From an uncultured Gemmatimonadales bacterium (lineage in GTDB: Bacteria > Gemmatimonadota > Gemmatimonadetes > Longimicrobiales > RSA9): a stretch of DNA of 64,000 bases. This document shows positions 747 through 27,996 of the stretch, one piece after another (position 1 is the first letter of the stretch; each line of letters opens with the position of its first letter). The position numbers and the translations under genes were made by a program. The DNA lies in the NCBI GenBank assembly GCA_963798085.1, contig CAWCRS010000007.1, positions 1,120,001-1,184,000 of the forward strand. Reading direction: 5' to 3'. The notes below the pieces were generated by a model. The model was given only the letters and a program-made list of their open reading frames with translations. It had not been told where the DNA came from and ran no database searches.

Positions 747-3024
747 ATGGCGCCCGGCACCGGATTCCGTGGTTTTCTGGATACGCTCGACCACCGTCCG
801 GAGGGTGCGTGGCCCGAGGGCATCCGGCATCACGGCGCCCGCTTCCTGCTGCTGCTGGCGCTCGCCCTGCTCACCTCACTGCTGTTTCCGGTAGCGCCCG
901 TCCCCGACTTTCCCGCGGTCGAAAAAGGCATGGTGCTGCCGCGCGACATCATCGCGCAGATCGACTTCGACGTGAAGAAGCCGGAGGCGGAGCTGCTGCG
1001 CGAGCGCGAGCAGGCGGCGGCCGCCGTGGCGCCCATCTTCCGCTACGACTCGGCAGCGATGGACACGATGCGCGTGCGCGTGGATTCGCTGCTCGCGCGC
1101 ATCGATCACGCCTTCACGAGTAGTGGCGAAGCGGCCGGAAGTGGAAGCGCGCGCGCGCTCCGTGCTGGCCGGCTACTCGCTGCCCACGCGTCCGGATGTG
1201 ATCGCGCTGCTGCACGTGCACGGCAATCGTACGGCACTGCGGCGCTCGCTGTCGCAGACGCTGTCGCGCGACCTGCAGGCGGGCGTGGCCCGGGCGGCCG
1301 AGCTGCAGAACAGCGTGGCGCCGCGCGTCCGCATCATCCGCAACGGCACGGACCAGCTGGTGGCCCGGGAAGAAGTGCCCACGGGCGAACGAGTGCGCGA
1401 GTCCGCCGCGCGCAACCTGCCCATGGATGCGCCCGCCGGCCTGGCCGAATTCCAGAAACTCGTGCTCATCGGGCTGTTTCAGCCAACACTGCGTTATGAC
1501 CGGAGCGCCACCGAGACCGAGCGGCAGAGCGCGCGCAACGCGGTGCCCGAGGTGAAGGCCAGCGTGGTGGCGGGCGAGCGCGTGATCGGTGCGCACGAGC
1601 GCATTGATGACGACGATGTGCAGCGGCTGCAGGCGTACGAATCGAAGCTGGCCGCGCAGGGCCGACTGCGGCCGGGACCGGCCCGCCTGGCGAGGGCCGG
1701 CGGCGGCTTCATCCTCAATGCGCTGCTGCTCGCGATCTTCGGCGTGATGCTGTTGTTCTACCGGCAGCCGATCTACCACAGCCCGCGCGGCATGCTGCTG
1801 CTGGCCACCCTGTACATGGCGGTGCTCGTGCCCGCGGCCGTCATTGCGCGCGGCGGGTCCTCGACACTGCTCATCCCCATTGCCTTCCCGGTACTGGTGG
1901 CGGCGGTCCTGTGGGAGGGGCGCATGGCGCTCGCCTTCGCCCTGGTGCTGGCCATTGTACTGGGCGCGCAGGCGCCGCTGGGCGATCTCTCGGTGCGCGT
2001 ACAGCTGGCGGCCGCGGGTGCGGCGGCGGCACTGTGCGTGCGCGTCGTGCACCGCCGTGCGCACGGCCTGATCCTGGGCATCATCGTGGCCGGCGCCTAC
2101 CTGCTGGTTAGCCTGGGCGTGGGCCTGCTGCTCTCCTGGTCGCCGGGCACCATGGCATTGGCGGCGGCGCTGGGCTCCGCCAACGGCATCGGCTGTGCGC
2201 TCATCGCGGTGGGCCTCATGCCGCTGTTCGAAGCGTGGACGGGCATCACCACGGACCAGACACTGCTCGAGCTGGCCGACCTGAACGGTCCGGTGCTCAA
2301 GCGGCTCTCCCTCGAAGCGGGCGGCACGTACGCGCACTCCGTCAATGTCGCGCATCTCGCGGAGGCTGCGGCGCGCGCGATTGGCGCCAATCCCGTGCTG
2401 GCCAGGGTGGGCGCGTACTATCACGACATTGGCAAGCTGGCGGCGCCCCAGTACTTCGTCGAGAACCAGGTCAGCGGGCGCAACCCGCACGACCGGCTGT
2501 CGCCCGAGGAATCGGTGGCGGTGATCCGCGGCCACGTGAGCGAAGGCGAACGCATGGCGGAGCAGGCCAAGCTGCCCGAGTGCGTGCGCGCGTTCATTCC
2601 CGAGCATCACGGGACGCAGCTGATCGGCTTCTTTTTCGAGAAGGCGAAGCAGCGCGACGGCGGCAGTCCGGATCCCGCGGAGTACTCGTATGGCGGGCCG
2701 CGGCCGCGCAGCCGCGAGACCGCGATCCTGCTGCTCGCCGATTCCGTCGAGTCCGCGACCAAGGTGCTGGACGATCCCACACCCGATCGCATTCGCGAGC
2801 TGGTCGATCGCATTGTGCAGGGCAAGATCGACCGCGGCCAGCTGGACGATGCGCCCTTCACGATGCGTGATCTGAGCCGCGTCCGGCAGGCGTTCGTCAA
2901 GGTACTCAGCGGCATGTACCACCATAGAATTGACTATCCGGCCTCCGCGATCGGTGTCGAGCACAAGCCGCTCGCGGAGGGGCCGAGCCCGGCGACCGGC
3001 ACGCCCGCGGGCCGCGGGCAGTGA
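747..3024 (+). CDS. 7TM-HD (HDIG) phosphohydrolase, PgpH/YqfF-like; frameshift near 1115-1125
   Basis: N-terminal TM helix and extracellular domain (ORF 747) continue in ORF 1123 with multiple TMs, AHS, YYHDIGK, EHHGT and LLADSVE motifs; typical phoH-HD-ybeY context. Confidence 0.9.
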
Positions 3025-3461
3025 CGCTGCGGATCCAGGTGCAGTCGGGTGGCCGCACCCCCGCCCGCCGCGGCGATGTGGCCATTGTGCGCCGCGCCAC
3101 GCGCACTACGCTCGAGCAACTCGGTGTTACCGATGCCGAGCTTTCCATCACGCTGCTGCGGGACCGCGCCATGGCCAGGCTGAATCGGGAACACCTCGAG
3201 CACGACGGCACCACGGATGTCCTCAGCTTTGCGCTGTTCGACGGCGGTGAGGCGCCTGTGGGCGACATCTACATTGGCGTGGAGCAGGCTGCGCGGCAGG
3301 CGGAAGCACTGGCGGTACCGCTGCGCGAGGAGCTGGCGAGGCTCGCGATCCACGGCACCCTGCACGTGCTGGGACACGATCATCCGGCAGGCAGAAACAG
3401 GGAACGCAGCCGCATGTGGCGCGTTCAGGAACGCATCCTGGCGACGGTGATGGCAACGTGA
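3021..3461 (+). CDS. ybeY: rRNA maturation endoribonuclease YbeY
   Basis: TDVLSF, GDIYI and HGTLHVLGHDH zinc motif; GTGA overlap with the upstream gene. Confidence 0.95.
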   Translation: MTLRIQVQSGGRTPARRGDVAIVRRATRTTLEQLGVTDAELSITLLRDRAMARLNREHLEHDGTTDVLSFALFDGGEAPVGDIYIGVEQAARQAEALAVPLREELARLAIHGTLHVLGHDHPAGRNRERSRMWRVQERILATVMAT

Positions 3462-4139
3462 CGGGCGGGTTCATCCGGAAACGCATTCCGCCGGCGGCTG
3501 ATCGCCGGGCTGGTGGTGATCGCGCCACTGACGGCGACGTTGTTCGTGCTCTGGTGGATCTTCCAGCTGCTGGACGGTCTGCTGGGCCGTTTCCTGTATC
3601 CGGCGCTGGCGCGCTACATCCCGTGGATCGGCCTGCTGCCGGGGCTCGGTCTGATCGCGCTGCTGCTGCTGCTCCTGCTCGTGGGCTGGATCGCGGAGCG
3701 CGCCATTGGCTCGCGCATCGTGCGCGCCTACCAGCGCCTGCTCGAGCGCATCCCGGTGACCCGGCGCATCTACAGCGCTGCGAACCGCATTGTTCGCACG
3801 GTATTCGGCCAGGGCCGGCGCCCCTTCAACGTGGTGGTGCTGATCGAGTATCCCTCGCCCGGGCGCTGGTCCATCGGTTTCCTTGCCGCCGCGGCGCCCG
3901 CGGTGGTGCAGGCGTATGTGCCGGACTCCGTATCGGTGTTCGTGCCGACAACGCCCAATCCGACGTCCGGCTGGTTCGTCATCGTGCCGCGCACCAGCCT
4001 CATCGTGCTGCCCATGACCGTGGATGAAGCCTTCACGCTGATCCTGTCCGGCGGTGCCGCCGTGCCGGAATCGGACCGCACGTCGCACGCTGCTGTGATC
4101 CCGGCCCTGCACCCGCCCGTATCGCCCGTGGAATCATGA
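3458..4139 (+). CDS. DUF502 membrane protein; apparent frameshift near 3489
   Basis: RRRLIAGLVVIAP start, VLIEYP and VFVPTTPNPTSG motifs; GTG overlapping the ybeY stop joins ORF 3513 after one indel. Confidence 0.85.
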
Positions 4140-5788
4140 AGCGCTGGCGCCGTGCGTTCCGCATCATGACGAGCCTGCTCCCGTTCGTCGTGGCGTTCCT
4201 GCGCGACCGCCGCCGCTTCATCCTGTTCGGCCGGCCCGCAAGGCGGAACCCCGATGTGCACCAGCTGCGCGCGGACCGACTGACGCTGACCATCGCGTCG
4301 CTGGGTCCCACGTTCATCAAGCTGGCGCAGGTGTTCAGTGCGCGCGCCGACATTCTGCCGGAGCCGTACCTGTCCAGTGTCAGCCGCCTGCAGGATCGCG
4401 TGCCGGCCGATCCGTTCGACGCCATCGAGCACGTGCTGATCGCGGAGCTGGGCAAACCGCCCGACGAAGCGTTCGAGGATTTCGTGCAGGAGCCGGTGGC
4501 GGCGGCCAGTCTGGGGCAGGTGTACCGTGCCCGCCTGGGCGGCCGCGAGGTCGCGGTGAAGGTGCTGCGTCCCGGTGTCGAGGAAGTCGTGGCCATCGAC
4601 CTGGAGATTTCCTTCCGGCTGCTTTTCCTGCTGAATGTCCTGTTCCGCAACCATCACATTCGCGCGCTGACCAGTGTGGTGCGCGAGTTCAGCGTGAAGG
4701 TGCGCGAGGAGATGGACTTCCGGCAGGAAGCCGCCAATATGGCGAGGTTCCACAAACACTTCGATAGCGACCCGCGCGTGCGCGCGCCGCAGGTGGTCGA
4801 GAGTCTGGTGCGCCAGCGCGTGCTGGTCATGGAATGGGTGTCGGGCGACAAGGTGGATCAGCTGCAGTCGCGCTTCGCCGCCGGCTCGCTCAGCTTCCGC
4901 CAGCTCATGGAGACGCTGACCGAGACTTACCTGCGCATGCTGCTGGTGGATGGATTTCTGCACGCCGATCCGCACCCGGGCAACATTGTCGTGGAAGAGA
5001 ATGGCACGGTCGTGTTCCTCGACTGGGGCATGGCCGTGCAACTGGACCGCTCCGCGCGCGACCACATCCTGCGCACGGCCATGGCCGCGGGACGCAACGA
5101 TCTGGACGGCATCATCAACGGCATGTACGCGCTGGGCATGATCGATCCCAACATCTCGCGCAGCGAGATCCGCGACGCGGCCGTCGAGATCCTCGACATT
5201 GTCGAGCGTATGCGTGAGCTGGGGCAGCGGCGGGTGCAGGAGATGGTGCAGGAGATCATGGACACGTTCTACACCTTCCCGCTGCTGCTGCCGCCGCAGC
5301 TGGTGTACTTCTTCAGGGCGACGACGCTGCTCGAAGGCATCGGGCTGCGCTACGATCCGGCGTTCAACGGGCTCGAGGTCGTGCGTCCCGTGGTGCGGCG
5401 CATGCGCGGTGAGCTGCTGCAGGCGACGGCGCGCCAGCCGCGCGAGATCGCGCTGGGCGTGATGGACGAGGTGCGCACCGGCTTTTCCGCGATCCGCGAC
5501 GTCATTGCCCGTGCCGAGCGCGAGGAATTCCGCGTCCGCATCCATCCCCGTGATGTGACCCAGGCCGAGCGCTTCCTGCAGCTCCAGGTGCGGCGCATCC
5601 TGGTCAGCATCTTTGCGCTCACCGTCGCGCTCATCACCGCGATCACCTATCTCGCGGAGCATAACTTCTGGTTACTGGTGGGCGGCCTGACACTCTCTTT
5701 CATCACCTTCGTGGTGGTGCTCTTCCTGCCGGTGCACCTGCTGGAGAATCCGCTGCGGCATGCGCGCGGCCTGCGCTCCGAGCGTTGA
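4136..5788 (+). CDS. ABC1/UbiB (AarF) family atypical kinase
   Basis: LGPTFIKLAQ, AAASLGQVY, VAVKV, HADPHPGN and LDWG motifs; two C-terminal TM helices. Confidence 0.92.
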   Translation: MKRWRRAFRIMTSLLPFVVAFLRDRRRFILFGRPARRNPDVHQLRADRLTLTIASLGPTFIKLAQVFSARADILPEPYLSSVSRLQDRVPADPFDAIEHVLIAELGKPPDEAFEDFVQEPVAAASLGQVYRARLGGREVAVKVLRPGVEEVVAIDLEISFRLLFLLNVLFRNHHIRALTSVVREFSVKVREEMDFRQEAANMARFHKHFDSDPRVRAPQVVESLVRQRVLVMEWVSGDKVDQLQSRFAAGSLSFRQLMETLTETYLRMLLVDGFLHADPHPGNIVVEENGTVVFLDWGMAVQLDRSARDHILRTAMAAGRNDLDGIINGMYALGMIDPNISRSEIRDAAVEILDIVERMRELGQRRVQEMVQEIMDTFYTFPLLLPPQLVYFFRATTLLEGIGLRYDPAFNGLEVVRPVVRRMRGELLQATARQPREIALGVMDEVRTGFSAIRDVIARAEREEFRVRIHPRDVTQAERFLQLQVRRILVSIFALTVALITAITYLAEHNFWLLVGGLTLSFITFVVVLFLPVHLLENPLRHARGLRSER

Positions 5789-22099: not shown

Positions 22100-23641
22100 A
22101 TGAAACGTGAGATCCTGATTTCGGCCACGCCGCAGGAAACGCGGGTGGCCATCCTCGAGGACAACGTCCTGGTCGAGTTGATGATCGACCAGCCCGACAG
22201 CGAGCGACTCGTCGGCGACGTCTACCTCGGCCAGGTCCAGGCTGTGCTGCCCGGCATCCAGGCAGCCTTCGTCGATATCGGCACCGAGAAGGCGGCGTTC
22301 CTGCACGTCTCGGATGTCGCCCGCGACGATGACGAAGACGAGGAGGCTGAAGGTGGTGGCGGTGGAGGCAATGACGCCGACGCACGCTCCCGTCGGTATC
22401 CGCCCATCCAGGACCTGATCGAGAAAGGCGAGAAGCTGCTGGTCCAGGCCTCCAAGGAGCCGATCGGCACCAAGGGCCCCCGCGTCACCACGCACATCTC
22501 GCTGCCCGGCCGGTTCCTCGTCTTCATGCCCGGCTCCGACCACATCGGCGTCAGCCGCAAGATCGAAGGCAGGGAGGAGCGCGGCCGCCTGCGGGCGATC
22601 GCCCGCGAAGCCGTTCCCGAAGGCAGCGGCGGCGTCATCATCCGCACGGCCGGCGAGGAACTGACGCGCGAGGTGTTCGAGCGCGAGTTCAACACGCTCA
22701 CGGAAACCTGGAAGAAGATCCAGAAGCGCTCGAAGGGCGCGCGGCCGCCCGCCCTCATCCACCGTGAAGCCAAGCTGACCTCCGGCATCATCCGCGACGT
22801 GTTCACGCAGCGCGTCGACGCACTGATCGTCGACAGCAAGCAGGTGAACAACGAAATCCGCACGTACCTCGAGGGTGTGGATCCGACGCTGGTCGAGCGC
22901 GTGCACCTCTACGCGGATCCCGTCCCGCTCTTCGACAAGTATGGCGTCGAGGATGCCATCCGGCAGGCGTTCCAGCGGCGCGTCGATCTGCCTTCGGGCG
23001 GCTACATCATCATCGAACCCACCGAGGCGCTCGTCTCCATCGACGTCAACACCGGCCGCTACACCGGTCGCAAGGATCCCGAGAAGACCATCCTGCGCAC
23101 CAACCTCGATGCGGCGAGGGAAATCGCGCGCCAGCTGCGCCTGCGTGATGTCGGCGGCATCATCGTCGCCGACTTCATCGACATGGAAACGCGCTCCAAC
23201 CAGGAGCGCGTGCTGCAGGAGCTGCGCACGCACCTGAACCGCGATCGCGCCCGCACACGCGCCTTCCAGGTCTCCGAGCTGGGTCTCGTCGAGATGACGC
23301 GCCAGCGCGTGCGCCCATCGCTCTTCCACACCCTGACCGAGCCCTGTTCGCACTGCGGCGGCAGCGGCCGCGTATTCCGGCCTGACACCGTGTTACGCCG
23401 CATCGAACGCGCCGCCCGCCGTATCGCCGTCACCCAGGCCGAGTCCGACATCACGGTGCGCGTGCACCCCGAGGTCGCACTCTACATCCTCGAACAGGAG
23501 CCCGACTTCCTGCGTCGCATGCACCGTTCCCTGCGCATGTCCATGGACCTCCGCGACGACCCGCTCATGCGCCAGGACGAGTTCCGACTGCTGGCCGGCA
23601 CGGCCGAGAACGACATCACCGAGAAGTATGCGCTGGGCTGA
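22100..23641 (+). CDS. rng: Ribonuclease G (Rne/Rng family)
   Basis: S1 domain VLPGIQAAFVDIG, KEPIGTKGPR, IDVNTG, RQLRLRDVGGIIVADFIDM and CxxC. Confidence 0.93.
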   Translation: MKREILISATPQETRVAILEDNVLVELMIDQPDSERLVGDVYLGQVQAVLPGIQAAFVDIGTEKAAFLHVSDVARDDDEDEEAEGGGGGGNDADARSRRYPPIQDLIEKGEKLLVQASKEPIGTKGPRVTTHISLPGRFLVFMPGSDHIGVSRKIEGREERGRLRAIAREAVPEGSGGVIIRTAGEELTREVFEREFNTLTETWKKIQKRSKGARPPALIHREAKLTSGIIRDVFTQRVDALIVDSKQVNNEIRTYLEGVDPTLVERVHLYADPVPLFDKYGVEDAIRQAFQRRVDLPSGGYIIIEPTEALVSIDVNTGRYTGRKDPEKTILRTNLDAAREIARQLRLRDVGGIIVADFIDMETRSNQERVLQELRTHLNRDRARTRAFQVSELGLVEMTRQRVRPSLFHTLTEPCSHCGGSGRVFRPDTVLRRIERAARRIAVTQAESDITVRVHPEVALYILEQEPDFLRRMHRSLRMSMDLRDDPLMRQDEFRLLAGTAENDITEKYALG

Positions 23642-23691
23642 CGGGCCGTTTCTGGGGCTGGGGCTCGGGCTCAGGCAACAGATCTGACGGC

Positions 23692-23730
23692 GTTGCTCGG
23701 GCTGGTTGCTGGGGATGGTTGCTCAGGACC
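23692..23730. repeat. 13-bp tandem repeat x3
   Basis: GTTGCTCGGGCTG / GTTGCTGGGGATG / GTTGCTCAGGACC. Confidence 0.55.
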
Positions 23731-24595
23731 GGCTTGAAGAACAGGTGCAGATTGCCCCCGAACGGGTGAGATTCTGCTGCTGGTAGTGGGTCAATTTGAG
23801 CCGTGACAAAGCGCCTCGCTCCCTACATTCTACTGAGGTCCCGACCACACTCCCCGGGGGTAGAATGGAACAGCGGGCGTACAGCTCAGCAGAGATGAAG
23901 ATCAACATTCGGTATTCCGGTCCCGGCCCCGAACGAGGCCGTATGAGCGTGGTCGAACTTGGCCCCGCCATGATCGGTCTCGGCCAAATGGTGGGAGGGG
24001 CGAGCCGCATACTGTATGGCGACGAGGCGCGAGTACAGGTTGAGGTTCACGCGAATTTCCGAAGAGCATTGTTTGGGGTCGATTTCTTCGCTGTTTCGTC
24101 ACAGGTTGGATTGCTTCCACCACTGGATCTACCAAGCCTGGCGGCGATTGCGACCCTGATAGGAGTAGGGGGCGGCGCCGTAAAGGGGCTAATACAGCTC
24201 GTCCGTTGGCAACGCGGACGGCGAATTGATCGGGTTGGAACTGATGGAGACCTGATTCAGATTCAGATCAACAATGAGGTTCAGGAAGTCACGGTGAATC
24301 AATATCGCATTCTTATCGATCCGGATGCACGAAAGGGACTCGGGGCCTTGGTTTCGCCCTTGACTACCGATGATGTGGATCTTGTGGAGCTTCAGAAGGA
24401 GGACGATCCTCCCATAGTCATCCCCTCAAATGAAGCAGCGTCGTTCACATCATCGCCGCTACCTGAACAGGAGATCTCCATTCGATAGCTACACCACGGT
24501 CCTCGAAGTCGTGGCGGTGACCTTCCGCGAGCGGAACAAATGGCGCTTCTCCCAAGGGGGCAACACATTCTACGCCGAGATCACGGATGAGGATT

Positions 24596-26056
24596 TGGAC
24601 CTGTCCCGATTCCGTGGACGGTTGAGTGTTTGGGTTGCCTGCTGCCGGCGCATGGCAATCCGTTCTGCTGTTGTTGATATGATGGATCCGTTTGCTGCCT
24701 GGGGTCCGAGCGAAGGCGAGGAGACCGCGCACGGCGCGGCCGCCCGCGGAAGGTGCCTTGTCGCGAGCCTCCAGAATCGCGTGTACGGGCCGGGAGCGGC
24801 CGGGAAGGTATCCCAGCACCCCCCGAATCGGCGGTGCGTGCGACTCACGCGGCTGACCCATGCAGTCGCTCGAAGTTCATGGGTGAGCGTTGACCCAGCG
24901 CAGAATGGCGCCGGTGCGGATTGTACCAGCCTTCGATGAAATGGAACACCGCTGTTTCGGCTTCCGCCGGCGTGCGAAAGCGGTAGCGGTCGAGCAACTC
25001 GCACTCGAGCGTGGCAAAGAAGCTTTCGCACAGCGCGTTGTCGTAGCAGTCGCCCACGCTGCCCATCGAGGGACGCACGCCGGCCTCGCGACAACGCTGA
25101 CCAAATGCCAGCGACGTGTACTGACTGCCCTGATCGGAGTGATGGATCACGGCGTGCGGACGCCGCTGCATGAGCGCCATGTTCATCGCCGCCACTACCA
25201 GTTCACTGCGCAGGTGTGTGGCCATGGCCCAGCCCACCACCCGTCGACTCCACACGTCCACCACCACCGCCAGATACAGCATCCCGCTCCAGGTCGAAAT
25301 GTACGTGATGTCGGCCACCCAGAGCTGATCCGGCCCCGTCGCCTTGAACTGACGGTCCACCAGATCCGGTGCCGGTCGGCTGTCCGCATCGCGCACGGTC
25401 GTGACTACCTTGCGTCGACGGCTTACGCCTTCCAGCCCTTCTTCCCGCATCAGGCGGCCCACGCGCTTGGGGGACACCGCCTCACCGTCATCCTGCAACT
25501 CCGCGTGCACACGCGGGCGGCCGTACGTCCCGTCCGACCGCTCGTGGATCTCGCGTATGCGCTGTTTCAACTGCGCGTCGCGCTCGGCTCGCGCCGACGC
25601 CCGACGCTCGAACCATGCATAGTACCCGCTGGTGGAGACCTCCAGCACGCGGCACATGGTGGCAATCGGATACATGGCCTGGTGGGCTCTCACGAATCGG
25701 TAGACCTCGACGGCACCGCATTCGGTCTCCCGAGCGAACCAGGCCGCGGCTTTTGCCAGGATCTCCCGCTCGACGCGCAACTGCTTGTTCTCGCGCCGCA
25801 GCCGCTTCAGCTCCGCCAGCTCCTCGCTGGTCGGCCCTTCACGGCGGCCCGCATCCCGATCCGCCTGCTTCACCCAGTTGCGAAGTGACTGCTCCGACAC
25901 CTTGAATTCCTTCGCCAGCTCTCCGATCGAGCGACCCGCCCGGGCCAGGTCGATAAGCCGACTACGGAATTCCAAGGGATACGACCGTCGTTTCGACATT
26001 GTGGACTCCTTTCTCTACCCAAGAGAGTAAGTGTCCACGAAACCGGGTCAACTCCA
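24596..26056 (-). mobile_element. IS3-family insertion sequence, 1461 bp
   Basis: TG...CA ends; 24-bp IRs with 19/24 identity; GATGAGGATT duplicated at 24586-24595 and 26057-26066. Confidence 0.93.
24845..25999 (-). CDS. IS3-family transposase (OrfA HTH and OrfB integrase core in one frame)
   Basis: LRNWVKQ and ELKRLRRENKQL; DDE triad WVADITY / HHSDQGSQY / DNALCESFF. Confidence 0.95.
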   Translation of the reverse strand: MSKRRSYPLEFRSRLIDLARAGRSIGELAKEFKVSEQSLRNWVKQADRDAGRREGPTSEELAELKRLRRENKQLRVEREILAKAAAWFARETECGAVEVYRFVRAHQAMYPIATMCRVLEVSTSGYYAWFERRASARAERDAQLKQRIREIHERSDGTYGRPRVHAELQDDGEAVSPKRVGRLMREEGLEGVSRRRKVVTTVRDADSRPAPDLVDRQFKATGPDQLWVADITYISTWSGMLYLAVVVDVWSRRVVGWAMATHLRSELVVAAMNMALMQRRPHAVIHHSDQGSQYTSLAFGQRCREAGVRPSMGSVGDCYDNALCESFFATLECELLDRYRFRTPAEAETAVFHFIEGWYNPHRRHSALGQRSPMNFERLHGSAA

Positions 26057-26277
26057 GATGAGGATTTTCTGCGACGGGTGTCACAGCGCAATGAGACTTT
26101 CGGCGCTGGCGATGCCCTTCAATGTAACGTGGAGCTTAGAACGTCGTCCACGGCGGATGGCTTTCGGTTCGAGCACCGCATTCTGAGGGTATTACAACAC
26201 ATCCGGGCGGACCAAGGCGGGCAACTTCCGATGCTTTGATACTTGTCCGATCACTACCGCTTTCCTACCTTTAGCTC

Positions 26278-26547
26278 ATGCCAAAGCGCAAAAGCATCAA
26301 ACCCAGCAATGACCCCAACCTGCGCGCATTCCGGGTTGCGGAGGCCGCGACTGCGGAGAAACCGGAGGCCGAAACGCCGGAGCCTCCCCGCAGAAAGAAC
26401 CCCCATGCCGTCCGGCTCGGCCAGCTCGGCGGGAAGAAGGGCGGCAAGCGCCGCCTCGAAACGATGACGCCGGAGCAACGATCTGACGCGGCCCGGAAGG
26501 CCGCCCAAGCTCGCTGGAAGAATAAGGGTCGAGATACCAAGAATTGA
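26278..26547 (+). CDS. Small basic protein of the KNPxAVxLGxLGGxKGG type
   Basis: KNPHAVRLGQLGGKKGGKRRLETMTPEQRSDAARKAAQARW; from recall, this type often lies beside IS1/IS1595-like transposases. Confidence 0.75.
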   Translation: MPKRKSIKPSNDPNLRAFRVAEAATAEKPEAETPEPPRRKNPHAVRLGQLGGKKGGKRRLETMTPEQRSDAARKAAQARWKNKGRDTKN

Positions 26548-26572
26548 CAGTTTCCCTCCGCTGGGAAGAAGA

Positions 26573-26606
26573 AAAGCACCGTACAGTATATACTGTACGG
26601 TGCTTT
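26573..26606. repeat. Perfect 34-bp palindrome
   Basis: AAAGCACCGTACAGTATATACTGTACGGTGCTTT equals its own reverse complement. Confidence 0.9.
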
Positions 26607-26773
26607 CTTGTCCATACTGGACTGAAACCAAAGATTTATGGCCCAACGGATGGTCGGGGTTGAAGGGACTGGTCCTGTGTCCATCGATTTGCGGCCCTGT
26701 CGGATGAGCGACGGCCATATTAAATTGCCTCGGACAGAACGCTGTACGCGCGTCACAAAATGGGTAATCTGCC

Positions 26774-27220
26774 ATGACAACGATTGATGATCTCGTCCAG
26801 TCTATCGACAGGCGCTTGCATGAGATCGATTTGGAGCGCCAGGAACTGCTGCGCTTTCGCACAATCTACGTTTCAACGCAACGCGAGCTACCGATGCCTG
26901 ATAACGTCACTGTTATTGAGTCCCATGCGCCGACAGATGATGGAATCTCTCCCCGCAGGAATGGCGCCGGGCCGAGTCAGGCTATTATCGAAGTGTTAGG
27001 AGTGAGCGCCAAGTCATTGAAGGCAAGCGAGCTGATCGACCGTGTAGTAGAACGTGTGGGTCACACGAGATCCACGGATGAGCGTCGTCAGCGCCGGACA
27101 ATTTCGTCCGTTCTTGCCTACCTCGTGAAGAGAAAGCGCGTGGTTCGTCGTGGATCGAGATATTCGCTACCCAAGGAAGGGGAAGGCGGTGCGATGCAGG
27201 ACCGCCCTATTGAGCGTTAG
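26774..27220 (+). CDS. Hypothetical protein, N-terminal coiled coil and probable C-terminal winged helix
   Basis: IDRRLHEIDLERQELL heptads; AIIEVL...LKASELIDRV...ISSVLAYLVKRKRVVRRGSRYSL pattern. Confidence 0.6.
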   Translation: MTTIDDLVQSIDRRLHEIDLERQELLRFRTIYVSTQRELPMPDNVTVIESHAPTDDGISPRRNGAGPSQAIIEVLGVSAKSLKASELIDRVVERVGHTRSTDERRQRRTISSVLAYLVKRKRVVRRGSRYSLPKEGEGGAMQDRPIER

Positions 27221-27236
27221 AGGCTCAATAGGGCGG
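27202..27236 (+). terminator. Perfect 14-bp stem hairpin (terminator-like, weak U tract)
   Basis: CCGCCCTATTGAGC-GTTAGAG-GCTCAATAGGGCGG spanning the stop codon. Confidence 0.55.
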
Positions 27237-27249
27237 GTTCGCTGAGTGG

Positions 27250-27285
27250 GGGCCAGTAGCTCAATGGGAGGAGCGCCGGCTTGAC
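27250..27285 (+). pseudogene. tRNA 5' half (acceptor strand, D-arm, anticodon 5' strand; possibly Val-GAC)
   Basis: GGGCCAG-TA-GCTC-AATGGGAG-GAGC-G-CCGGC-TT-GAC; no matching 3' half or T-arm follows. Confidence 0.6.
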
Positions 27286-27944
27286 GAGATCTGGAGTTTC
27301 GCGGGCTGCAAGGACCGGCGCGTGCCGGTCGAGGAGCAAGGGCAGGCCGGGGCGACGTGTGGACCTGGACGGCGCTCGATCAGGATTCCAAGCTCATAGT
27401 GGCGTATCGGGTCGGGAACCGTGACCCCAAGACGGGCCATGCCTTCATTCAGGATCTCCATGACCGGCTGTCCTCGCGCGTGCAGCTTACGACCGACGGC
27501 CTCACGATCTACCTGACCGCCGTGGAGCGAGCCTTCGGTTGGGGTCAGGTCGATTACGCCATGCTGATCAAGCTGTACGGTCACAGCCCGGACGGGGAGG
27601 AGAACCGCCGCTACAGCCCCGCCGTCTGCGTCGGGACGCGCAAGGAGCCGATCATGGGCCGCCCGGAAGAGGCCGACGTTTGCACGTCGCATGTGGAGCG
27701 GCAGAACCTGACGATGCGGATGCAGATGCGGCGCTTCACGCGCCTGACCAACGCGTTCTCAAAGAAGGTGGAAAACCACCTGTACGCGGTGGCGCTGCAC
27801 TTCATGCACTACAACTTCTGCCGCCCGCATCAGACGCTCACACGCGCGAACCGGGGTATCCATACGACGCCAGCGATGGCGGCCGGGCTCACGAACCGCG
27901 TGTGGACGATGGAGGACATTCTGAATTTGTTACACGGTGACTGA
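27280..27944 (+). pseudogene. IS1-family-like DDE transposase, N-terminus deleted, frameshift near 27347
   Basis: [65 protein letters not shown]; upstream in-frame stop at 27229 and no start codon. Confidence 0.85.
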
Positions 27945-27967
27945 CCCACTACCTGCTGCTCGAGGGG

Positions 27968-27996
27968 TTGACGGAAGGGGGCCGCGCCGTCAAAAT
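27968..27996 (+). promoter_or_regulatory. Putative sigma70 promoter of rplU-rpmA
   Basis: TTGACG-N17-CAAAAT; overlapping inverted repeat TTGACGG...CCGTCAA. Confidence 0.5.

Follow-up and report, generated by a model that had tools for sequence, protein, structure and literature searches.

A 64,000-nucleotide stretch of an uncultured Gemmatimonadales genome (contig CAWCRS010000007.1; hereafter the window) carries, between rng and rplU, what is probably a defunct copy of a widespread transposon related to insertion sequence (IS) 1, in which passenger genes accompany a core formed by a helix-turn-helix (HTH)-DDE transposase without a zinc finger and by a small basic partner protein. The small protein is rather likely to bind the transposase, as indicated by a predicted complex and by covariation between the two proteins. 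Small IS are usually regarded as a transposase plus its ends, and here a conserved separate subunit is predicted to bind the transposase. The individual copy in the window matters little, being dead. In the proposed history, the element would have inserted near the rplU promoter, an IS3-family element would then have entered its cargo gene, and an internal deletion would have followed.

The element (Table 1) is 2701 bp long without the IS3 and one copy of the IS3 duplication, and is single-copy in the 6.2-Mb, 90%-complete source genome. All the features listed in a first-pass annotation made from the sequence were found present, and its proposal of a passenger-carrying IS1 relative of ~2.7 kb without the IS3 is upheld. 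Identity between the two ends is small past the terminal inverted repeats (TIRs), and the first 29 bp are 93% identical to the left end of a relative (L003). Among 155 perfect 12-bp inverted pairs spaced 1-6 kb apart in the window, this pair alone is flanked by a 7-bp direct repeat. The passenger parts have 56-57% G+C, versus about 67% elsewhere. The best transposase matches point to a Gemmatimonadota as the probable host.

Transposase relatives were present in 588 of 600 candidate stretches from GTDB genomes, of which the best 80 were analysed; a 400-genome sample of the phylum gave 27 further genomes with a match, and 20 longer regions were examined. Duplicates (L002, L118) and weak matches (L004-L006) were excluded before counting. 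Complete elements, with both ends and a duplication, numbered 35 (29 of 86 loci and 6 of 20 longer regions). The clade occurs in more than 10 phyla, and relatives measure 1.3-3.7 kb with their passengers, which are swappable and occupy two slots, while the small gene and the transposase persist. The left-end pattern of the lineage had 0 matches in viral and metagenome contigs.

A conserved small protein predicted to contact the transposase

The small gene lies within 33 of the 35 complete elements, mostly as the first gene, and the idea that the element has its own accessory protein is thus borne out by a near-universal companion. One of the 33 (L061) has the small gene reversed, with a match restricted to the C-terminal part. 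By hand count, the 400 genomes of the phylum contain 34 strong matches to the small protein: 21 adjoin a transposase (two of them in the unpublished G116 and G202), 3 adjoin remnants, 7 lie near contig ends, and 3 have no transposase, 2 of these with a TIR. Away from contig ends, 24 of 27 strong matches therefore adjoin a transposase or a remnant.

Across the clade the protein is 70-95 aa long, with a conserved helix at the N terminus and a basic C-terminal part, likewise conserved, joined by a linker of 9-26 residues; the C-terminal part has a mean column conservation of 0.70 and lies outside the predicted interface described below. The protein is annotated as "histone H1" in one GenBank record and is otherwise labelled hypothetical. 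No Pfam family was common to more than one of 58 members, and no fold match emerged (Foldseek best E 7.8; VIA best Z 4.1). An NCBIfam match to actinobacterial IHF (E 0.014) was too weak to be accepted. The basic C-terminal motif also forms part of longer proteins, namely an open reading frame (ORF) at 3546-4757 on the minus strand of L070, phrog_2384 and phrog_12127. In the window the small gene follows a likely leaderless promoter that the promoter scanner did not call (Table 1).

Co-folding of the transposase of L007, the nearest relative, with its small protein gave a complex score of 0.82, versus 0.26 for the best of three controls; the mark set for this score is reached by 116 of 157 solved pairs and by 2 of 215 mismatched pairs. 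Contact agreement between the complex runs was at least 47%, and the pLDDT (predicted local distance difference test) of the partner was at least 46. The predicted interface pairs partner residues 13-30 with transposase residues 17-26, 67-72, 94-108 and 226-241, a surface that includes catalytic Asp67 and the beginning of the HTH. Sequence comparison with solved structures gave no relative for either protein (best E 0.84 and 0.24), which makes a score passed on structure memory less likely.

Thirteen testable predicted contact pairs covary, with mean z of 2.2, 1.7 and 0.9 in sets of 75, 58 and 35 paired sequences, values reached 0, 1 and 40 times in 10000 by shuffled columns; 15 of the 75 paired sequences lie outside the folding alignment. 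At partner residue 19 and transposase residue 237, the 75 pairs comprise 52 Asn/His, 20 other/other and 3 discordant combinations, and 8 of 9 independent contrasts agree with none opposite (sign test, p about 0.008). The copy in the window keeps the equivalents of Asn19 and His237 and has lost the HTH part of the interface. Model and covariation together support a predicted arrangement in which the N-terminal helix of the partner would dock between the HTH and catalytic domains of the transposase, and small-protein Asn19 and transposase His237 (L007 numbering) offer a ready pair for residue swaps.

Insertion near promoters and a possible role of the small protein

Complete relatives show an insertion preference that may bear on what the partner does. 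A -35-like hexamer lies at an offset of 15 bp from the element end in 13 of 35 elements, against a background of 1.1% per position (p about 1e-12, with related elements not being independent). At rplU the promoter is intact beside the element, with TTGACG 14 bp from its right end, and in all 11 family relatives TTGAC can be read by eye ahead of rplU. Since the relatives peak at 15 bp, one C appears to be missing at the right junction. This agrees with the earlier suggestion of an 8-bp duplication from which one C was lost, as does the target duplication of complete relatives, which is exactly 8 bp in 34 of 35 and 9 bp in none. An empty site was not found in the same species, and a genome of the same genus gives just a partial rplU match. 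Among the 11 family-level loci, rng lies 84-300 bp before rplU in 6 (one being the unpublished G019) and 727-751 bp before it in 2, and is not in the rplU locus in 3; without the element, the spacing in the source genome would be 217 bp. The rng-rplU spacer also contains a REP-like short sequence (window 23641-23760), for which about nine further genome positions give matches of 84-91%.

In the proposed mechanism, the partner would be a working subunit of the transpososome, with its N-terminal helix on the transposase and its basic C-terminal helices contacting DNA or promoter-bound RNA polymerase. The element would land upstream of a promoter and leave it intact, as at rplU, and the basic module would perhaps substitute for the absent zinc finger and help to locate promoters. 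An activating or aiming subunit would be the favoured role, if short of an even chance, followed in order by an inhibitor and by some other role. A bolder extension, rather unlikely as a whole, is that the "histone H1"-annotated partner is an adaptor whose helix would sit on the transposase while its basic C-terminal module would recognise promoter DNA or promoter-bound RNA polymerase and direct the element to a point 15 bp upstream of sigma-70 -35 boxes, about where UP elements lie, and that the swappable slot would deliver irregular tRNAs that alter decoding or decoy anticodon nucleases. If the adaptor reading were true, insertion 15 bp upstream of -35 would be a safe, transcribed site. The clade offers a handle on how a compact transposon chooses harmless sites at a fixed promoter distance, and a candidate function for a common family of small proteins without a Pfam model, whose labels are "histone H1" or hypothetical.

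Several observations weigh against a partner that binds and guides the transposase. The complex was folded for the relative L007, not for the copy in the window; the partner fold is uncertain (pLDDT 46-51), and custom alignments were used, so that the calibration holds roughly. The covariation and the model share data, and the 19/237 pair was selected as the top of many pairs; both residues belong to the predicted interface, but they do not appear in the list of the 25 closest pairs. The two proteins co-diverge weakly overall (Mantel rho 0.29); the trees used for co-divergence and contrasts were quick trees without bootstrap, and the decayed L175 was left out. Two complete elements, L003 (itself deleted) and L133, are without the small gene. 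In addition, 22 of the 35 insertions have no -35 box at offset 15, and a matching -10 occurs in 4 of the 13 with the box. The partner linker ranges in length from 9 to 26 residues with no change in the offset of 15, so the partner is not a simple ruler.

Among the alternatives, the one that fares best, with a modest chance, is that the small protein is an anti-transposase that keeps activity low, promoter-proximal targeting coming from the transposase alone. The predicted interface would fit such an inhibitor in covering catalytic Asp67 and the HTH start, as would a promoter of the small gene separate from that of the transposase, and InsA of classical IS1 is a negative regulator (PMC8944449). 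However, the conserved basic C-terminal half lies outside the interface and recurs in other proteins (phrog_2384, phrog_12127 and the L070 ORF), which suggests a second binding job for the small protein.

It is less likely still that the element belongs to an ordinary, already catalogued IS1 subgroup of the ISMhu11 type, with the small gene as a frequent passenger that makes no contact with the transposase. Close homologues are indeed annotated "IS1 family transposase", and passenger-carrying elements are a known class (PMC7986276). However, the small gene persists while passengers vary, and the complex score and residue covariation speak for contact. In addition, against the NF033558 cut-off of 100 bits, all three intact relatives tested scored 65-70 bits (the remnant in the window, 36), and intact relatives match this profile from positions 39-43 on, the zinc-finger part being absent.

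Decay of the copy in the window and its passengers

The copy in the window lacks the complete transposase with promoter that an autonomous transposon requires; it is defunct and cannot move by itself. The transposase remnant corresponds in one frame to L007 residues 67-87 and in another to residues 91-284, with a frameshift near 27346, and is without about 66 N-terminal codons (the HTH domain); its open frame has no start codon. Of 78 relatives with sufficient upstream sequence, 76 have the N-terminal domain and the 2 exceptions are cut by other IS; a hidden Markov model of the domain found nothing in the six-frame source genome (best E 0.23; genome 90% complete). At the transposase promoter, 43 of 98 relatives versus 6 of 89 control segments have a palindromic motif, a likely candidate for an autoregulation operator; the motif is absent from this copy. 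In L007 this palindrome (4668-4685), with equivalents in the same 43 of 98 relatives, covers the -35 box of the transposase promoter.

Immediately before the remnant lies the 5' half of a tRNA-like gene. It matches positions 1-34 of 71 of the Rfam tRNA model (17.8 bits, E 0.069) in a chosen 60-bp stretch, and a scan of the whole region did not detect it. The 6.2-Mb genome has its D-arm pattern in 26 places within called tRNAs and in one place outside them, at the element. Together, the Rfam match and this pattern confirm the tRNA-like sequence that had been proposed. At G000:C5:189593-193300, 22 called tRNA genes are arrayed in 3.7 kb. The 5' acceptor strand, the D arm and the 5' anticodon strand with U33 are present, and a complete cloverleaf with T arm and 3' acceptor strand was not found at this site; the 3' half, which would show the variable arm and the acceptor and T stems, is deleted in this copy. 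No close match exists among the host tRNAs (best alignment score 24.5 of 33). A reading as tRNA-Val(GAC) was rejected, as GAC is the Asp codon of the transposase and no 3' stem lies downstream.

From the tRNA start to the Asp codon, the distance is 357-412 bp in five Rfam-confirmed relatives and 33 bp in this copy. A single deletion of about 325-380 bp explains the loss of the tRNA 3' half, the transposase promoter and the HTH alike, and the half-tRNA is most plausibly a scar of this deletion instead of a functional half-RNA. Internal deletions are common among relatives (L003, L174, L176, L178). L176 (G301:C88) has at 2736-3310 the small gene followed by the right-end repeat without a transposase, a possible mini-element.

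An intact living element, with the deletion and the single-base breaks produced by faulty assembly, is improbable. Near-identical repeats in the assembly differ by 13 gaps and 40 mismatches per 15.3 kb, and 2 of the 3 single-base breaks fall in homopolymer runs; these breaks may therefore be errors, and the large deletion is known from the assembly alone. However, homopolymer errors do not cleanly remove about 350 bp, the IS3 insertion amounts to decay of separate origin, and the element is single-copy. Least credible is a functional arrangement of tRNA half and transposase (regulatory half-tRNA, splicing or reversible programmed excision), for which it can be said that the tRNA is interrupted within its anticodon loop and the transposase precisely at its catalytic Asp codon, and that integrases often cross over in anticodon loops, but against which stand the absence of any similar relative, the whole tRNAs of tRNA-bearing relatives, a fused RNA that folds no better than shuffles (z 0.0 and 0.5) and, from the findings above, the lack of a start codon, the two N-terminally truncated relatives cut by other IS, the failure to find the missing part in the 90%-complete genome and the frequency of internally deleted copies.

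Table 1. Coordinates of the element, its components and the adjoining host promoter, numbered within the window
Feature	Position	Strand	Remarks
Left target-duplication copy	23774..23781	+	CTGCTGCT; 8 bp is the family rule
Transposon	23782..27953		Between rng and rplU; 12-bp TIRs and flanking duplication
Left TIR	23782..23793	+	GGTAGTGGGTCA; 12/12 versus right TIR
Cargo gene, LAPAL_fam/phrog_3243 family	23865..26239	+	Three pieces; start codon guessed
IS3-family element	24596..26056	-	Later insertion; Pfam HTH_Tnp_1/HTH_21/rve
Likely leaderless promoter of small gene	26243..26277	+	TTGTCC-17-TACCTT-6-ATG, read from sequence
Small basic protein gene	26278..26547	+	89 aa; core gene; N-terminal helix predicted to bind transposase
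34-bp perfect palindrome	26573..26606		z -7.2; private to this copy
Coiled-coil, linker and winged-helix protein	26774..27220	+	148 aa; passenger of optional module
14-bp hairpin before tRNA	27202..27236	+	z -6.1
tRNA-like gene, 5' half	27250..27282	+	Positions 1-33; broken in anticodon loop
IS1-related DDE transposase remnant	27283..27944	+	Begins at first catalytic Asp; HTH and promoter gone
Right TIR	27942..27953	-	Reverse complement of GGTAGTGGGTCA; holds transposase stop codon
Right target-duplication copy	27954..27960	+	TGCTGCT, 7 bp as read; next base C
Host rplU promoter	27968..27996	+	TTGACG-17-CAAAAT; likely insertion landmark

The cargo gene, disrupted by the IS3 insertion as well as by a frameshift near 24482, matches positions 1-199, 207-242 and 240-291 of the NF053583 profile on its three pieces. 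LAPAL-family cargo occurs in 11 of 400 other genomes, and 0 of 13 loci have the transposase, the small gene or the winged HTH (wHTH) gene within 1.5 kb, so that the LAPAL-family gene is taken to be an unrelated passenger. The IS3 is flanked by a 10-bp duplication (24586-24595 and 26057-26066), and two other near-identical copies in the genome have 3-bp duplications; the 10-bp duplication may stem from two nearby insertions that recombined, or from an assembly that is mixed. At window position 25721 this IS3 has one T more than both other copies, fusing two ORFs into a 384-aa frame.

A fixed "structured regulatory core", as the first-pass annotation had described the middle of the element, is not supported: the wHTH and tRNA module is optional and absent from L007, and the palindrome and internal motif are private to this copy. 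A coiled-coil/wHTH profile, built without use of gene context, matched L117, L130 and L175 (E<0.001) and L119 (0.0018), and in 4 of 4 a tRNA-like gene and then the transposase follow; similar-looking ORFs in L016, L034 and L015 lie beyond its reach. The described gene order is accordingly recurrent as to small protein, coiled-coil/wHTH protein, hairpin, tRNA and transposase (L117, L130, L175), without the palindrome and the internal motif. A tRNA-like gene occupies the variable slot between small gene and transposase in 8 of 80 relatives (7 by ARAGORN, L130 by Rfam), so that, of the companions expected to co-occur in relatives, the small protein does so nearly always and the tRNA in this minority, and the 34-bp palindrome has no counterpart in 80 relatives, 2 of which show an unrelated hairpin of at least 12 bp there (L003 was left out of the palindrome and tRNA comparison). 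Module carriers are scattered over the transposase tree, and L007 carries other cargo. The wHTH gene, hairpin and tRNA would together form an optional operon of passengers; at low confidence, this operon most likely combines a DNA-binding protein with a processed tRNA-like RNA and is dispensable for transposition.

The model of the wHTH protein has a pLDDT of 72, with a best wHTH-fold match of Z 9.8 and a root-mean-square deviation of 1.7 over 68 residues. No Pfam or PHROG family and no Foldseek match at E<=0.001 was found for it; its Atlas neighbours are unnamed, the nearest named being HARE-HTH on 15% of members at 0.89. Among 313 metagenome candidates for the wHTH pair, 0 were confirmed as relatives. 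In L139 (G187:C1), a wHTH homologue at 1500-2370 is convergent to a truncated transposase, IS1595-like by eye, and has no adjoining tRNA or IS1-type transposase.

Hairpins (z<=-2) precede 10 of 11 passenger tRNAs versus 10 of 53 host tRNAs, with position kept in relatives and sequence not. Short-arm tRNAs with a GCU anticodon occur at 6 of the 11 passenger loci (L011, L016, L043, L044, L120, L175); several of these six GCU (Ser) tRNAs have, by eye, an Arg-like D loop. L117 (G422:C50) carries two tandem irregular tRNAs at 1523-1705 on the minus strand; the anticodon of one is UUA, which would read ochre stop codons.

The 34-bp palindrome is probably a terminator-like hairpin after the small gene; no terminator was called there, and a promoter-like site on the minus strand (26614-26585) overlaps it. 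An Rfam SpF11 match on the palindrome (36.5 bits, gathering 54) was rejected as a hairpin plus U-run. The internal TIR-like motif that had been noted is present at 26249-26258, in the spacer of the small-gene promoter, but amounts to just a 7-bp match, CACTACC being found before the small gene in 1 of 77 cases, this copy.

Relation to known systems

A literature search covering titles and the starts of abstracts, outside subscription journals and ISfinder, found nothing describing the clade, its targeting or the partner, and the partnership with the transposase seems undescribed so far. The nearest named element seen is ISAcma3, about 26% identical. Transporter IS (tIS), reportedly described by Siguier et al. 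in 2009, are said to include the IS1 subgroup ISMhu11 and members of the IS1595 family. Common to tIS and this clade are passenger genes inside one TIR pair, upstream of the transposase, whereas tRNA-like passengers and a core gene for a partner predicted to contact the transposase are not known to belong to the tIS description.

Among the passengers, the wHTH protein has the Rok domain of Bacillus subtilis as its top Foldseek row (E 0.03), a place for which many wHTH proteins tie. Rok consists of an N-terminal helical segment, a flexible linker and a C-terminal winged helix, and the likeness is one of layout alone. As to the tRNAs, irregular tRNA genes of soil bacteria, sometimes paired, adjoin ORFs for a "transposon-related protein" or toxin-antitoxin genes, and several may not serve translation, according to Mukai et al. 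(PMC5389517), whose text names no IS family. The allo-tRNAs described there have long variable arms and 8/4 or 9/3 stems, in contrast to the short-arm GCU passenger tRNAs at 6 of 11 loci.

The closest comparison is with the IS1 family itself, with which the clade shares the same PF03400-type DDE domain (the remnant scores 32.3 bits against DDE_Tnp_IS1, cut-off 24.1), GGT-starting ends, an 8-bp duplication and an HTH before the catalytic domain, and PGAP names close homologues "IS1 family transposase". Members of the IS1 family have an N-terminal zinc finger before the HTH, GGT-starting TIRs and duplications of 8-9 bp. Classical IS1 of E. coli joins its ORFs by a programmed frameshift (InsA/InsB'/InsAB') and has a two-ORF layout (PMC8944449), whereas the 57 relatives aligned here are single-ORF transposases with a consensus that starts MNKL and has no Cys pairs; the frameshift of the copy in the window is not shared by them. 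The element resembles an IS1-family tIS in the way it works; it is filed as IS1-related, failing the zinc-finger and NCBIfam cut-off features of that family, and the clade differs from it in its single ORF, its missing zinc finger, its score below the NCBIfam cut-off, its length of 1.3-3.7 kb with passengers, its separate conserved partner protein and its fixed -35 offset.

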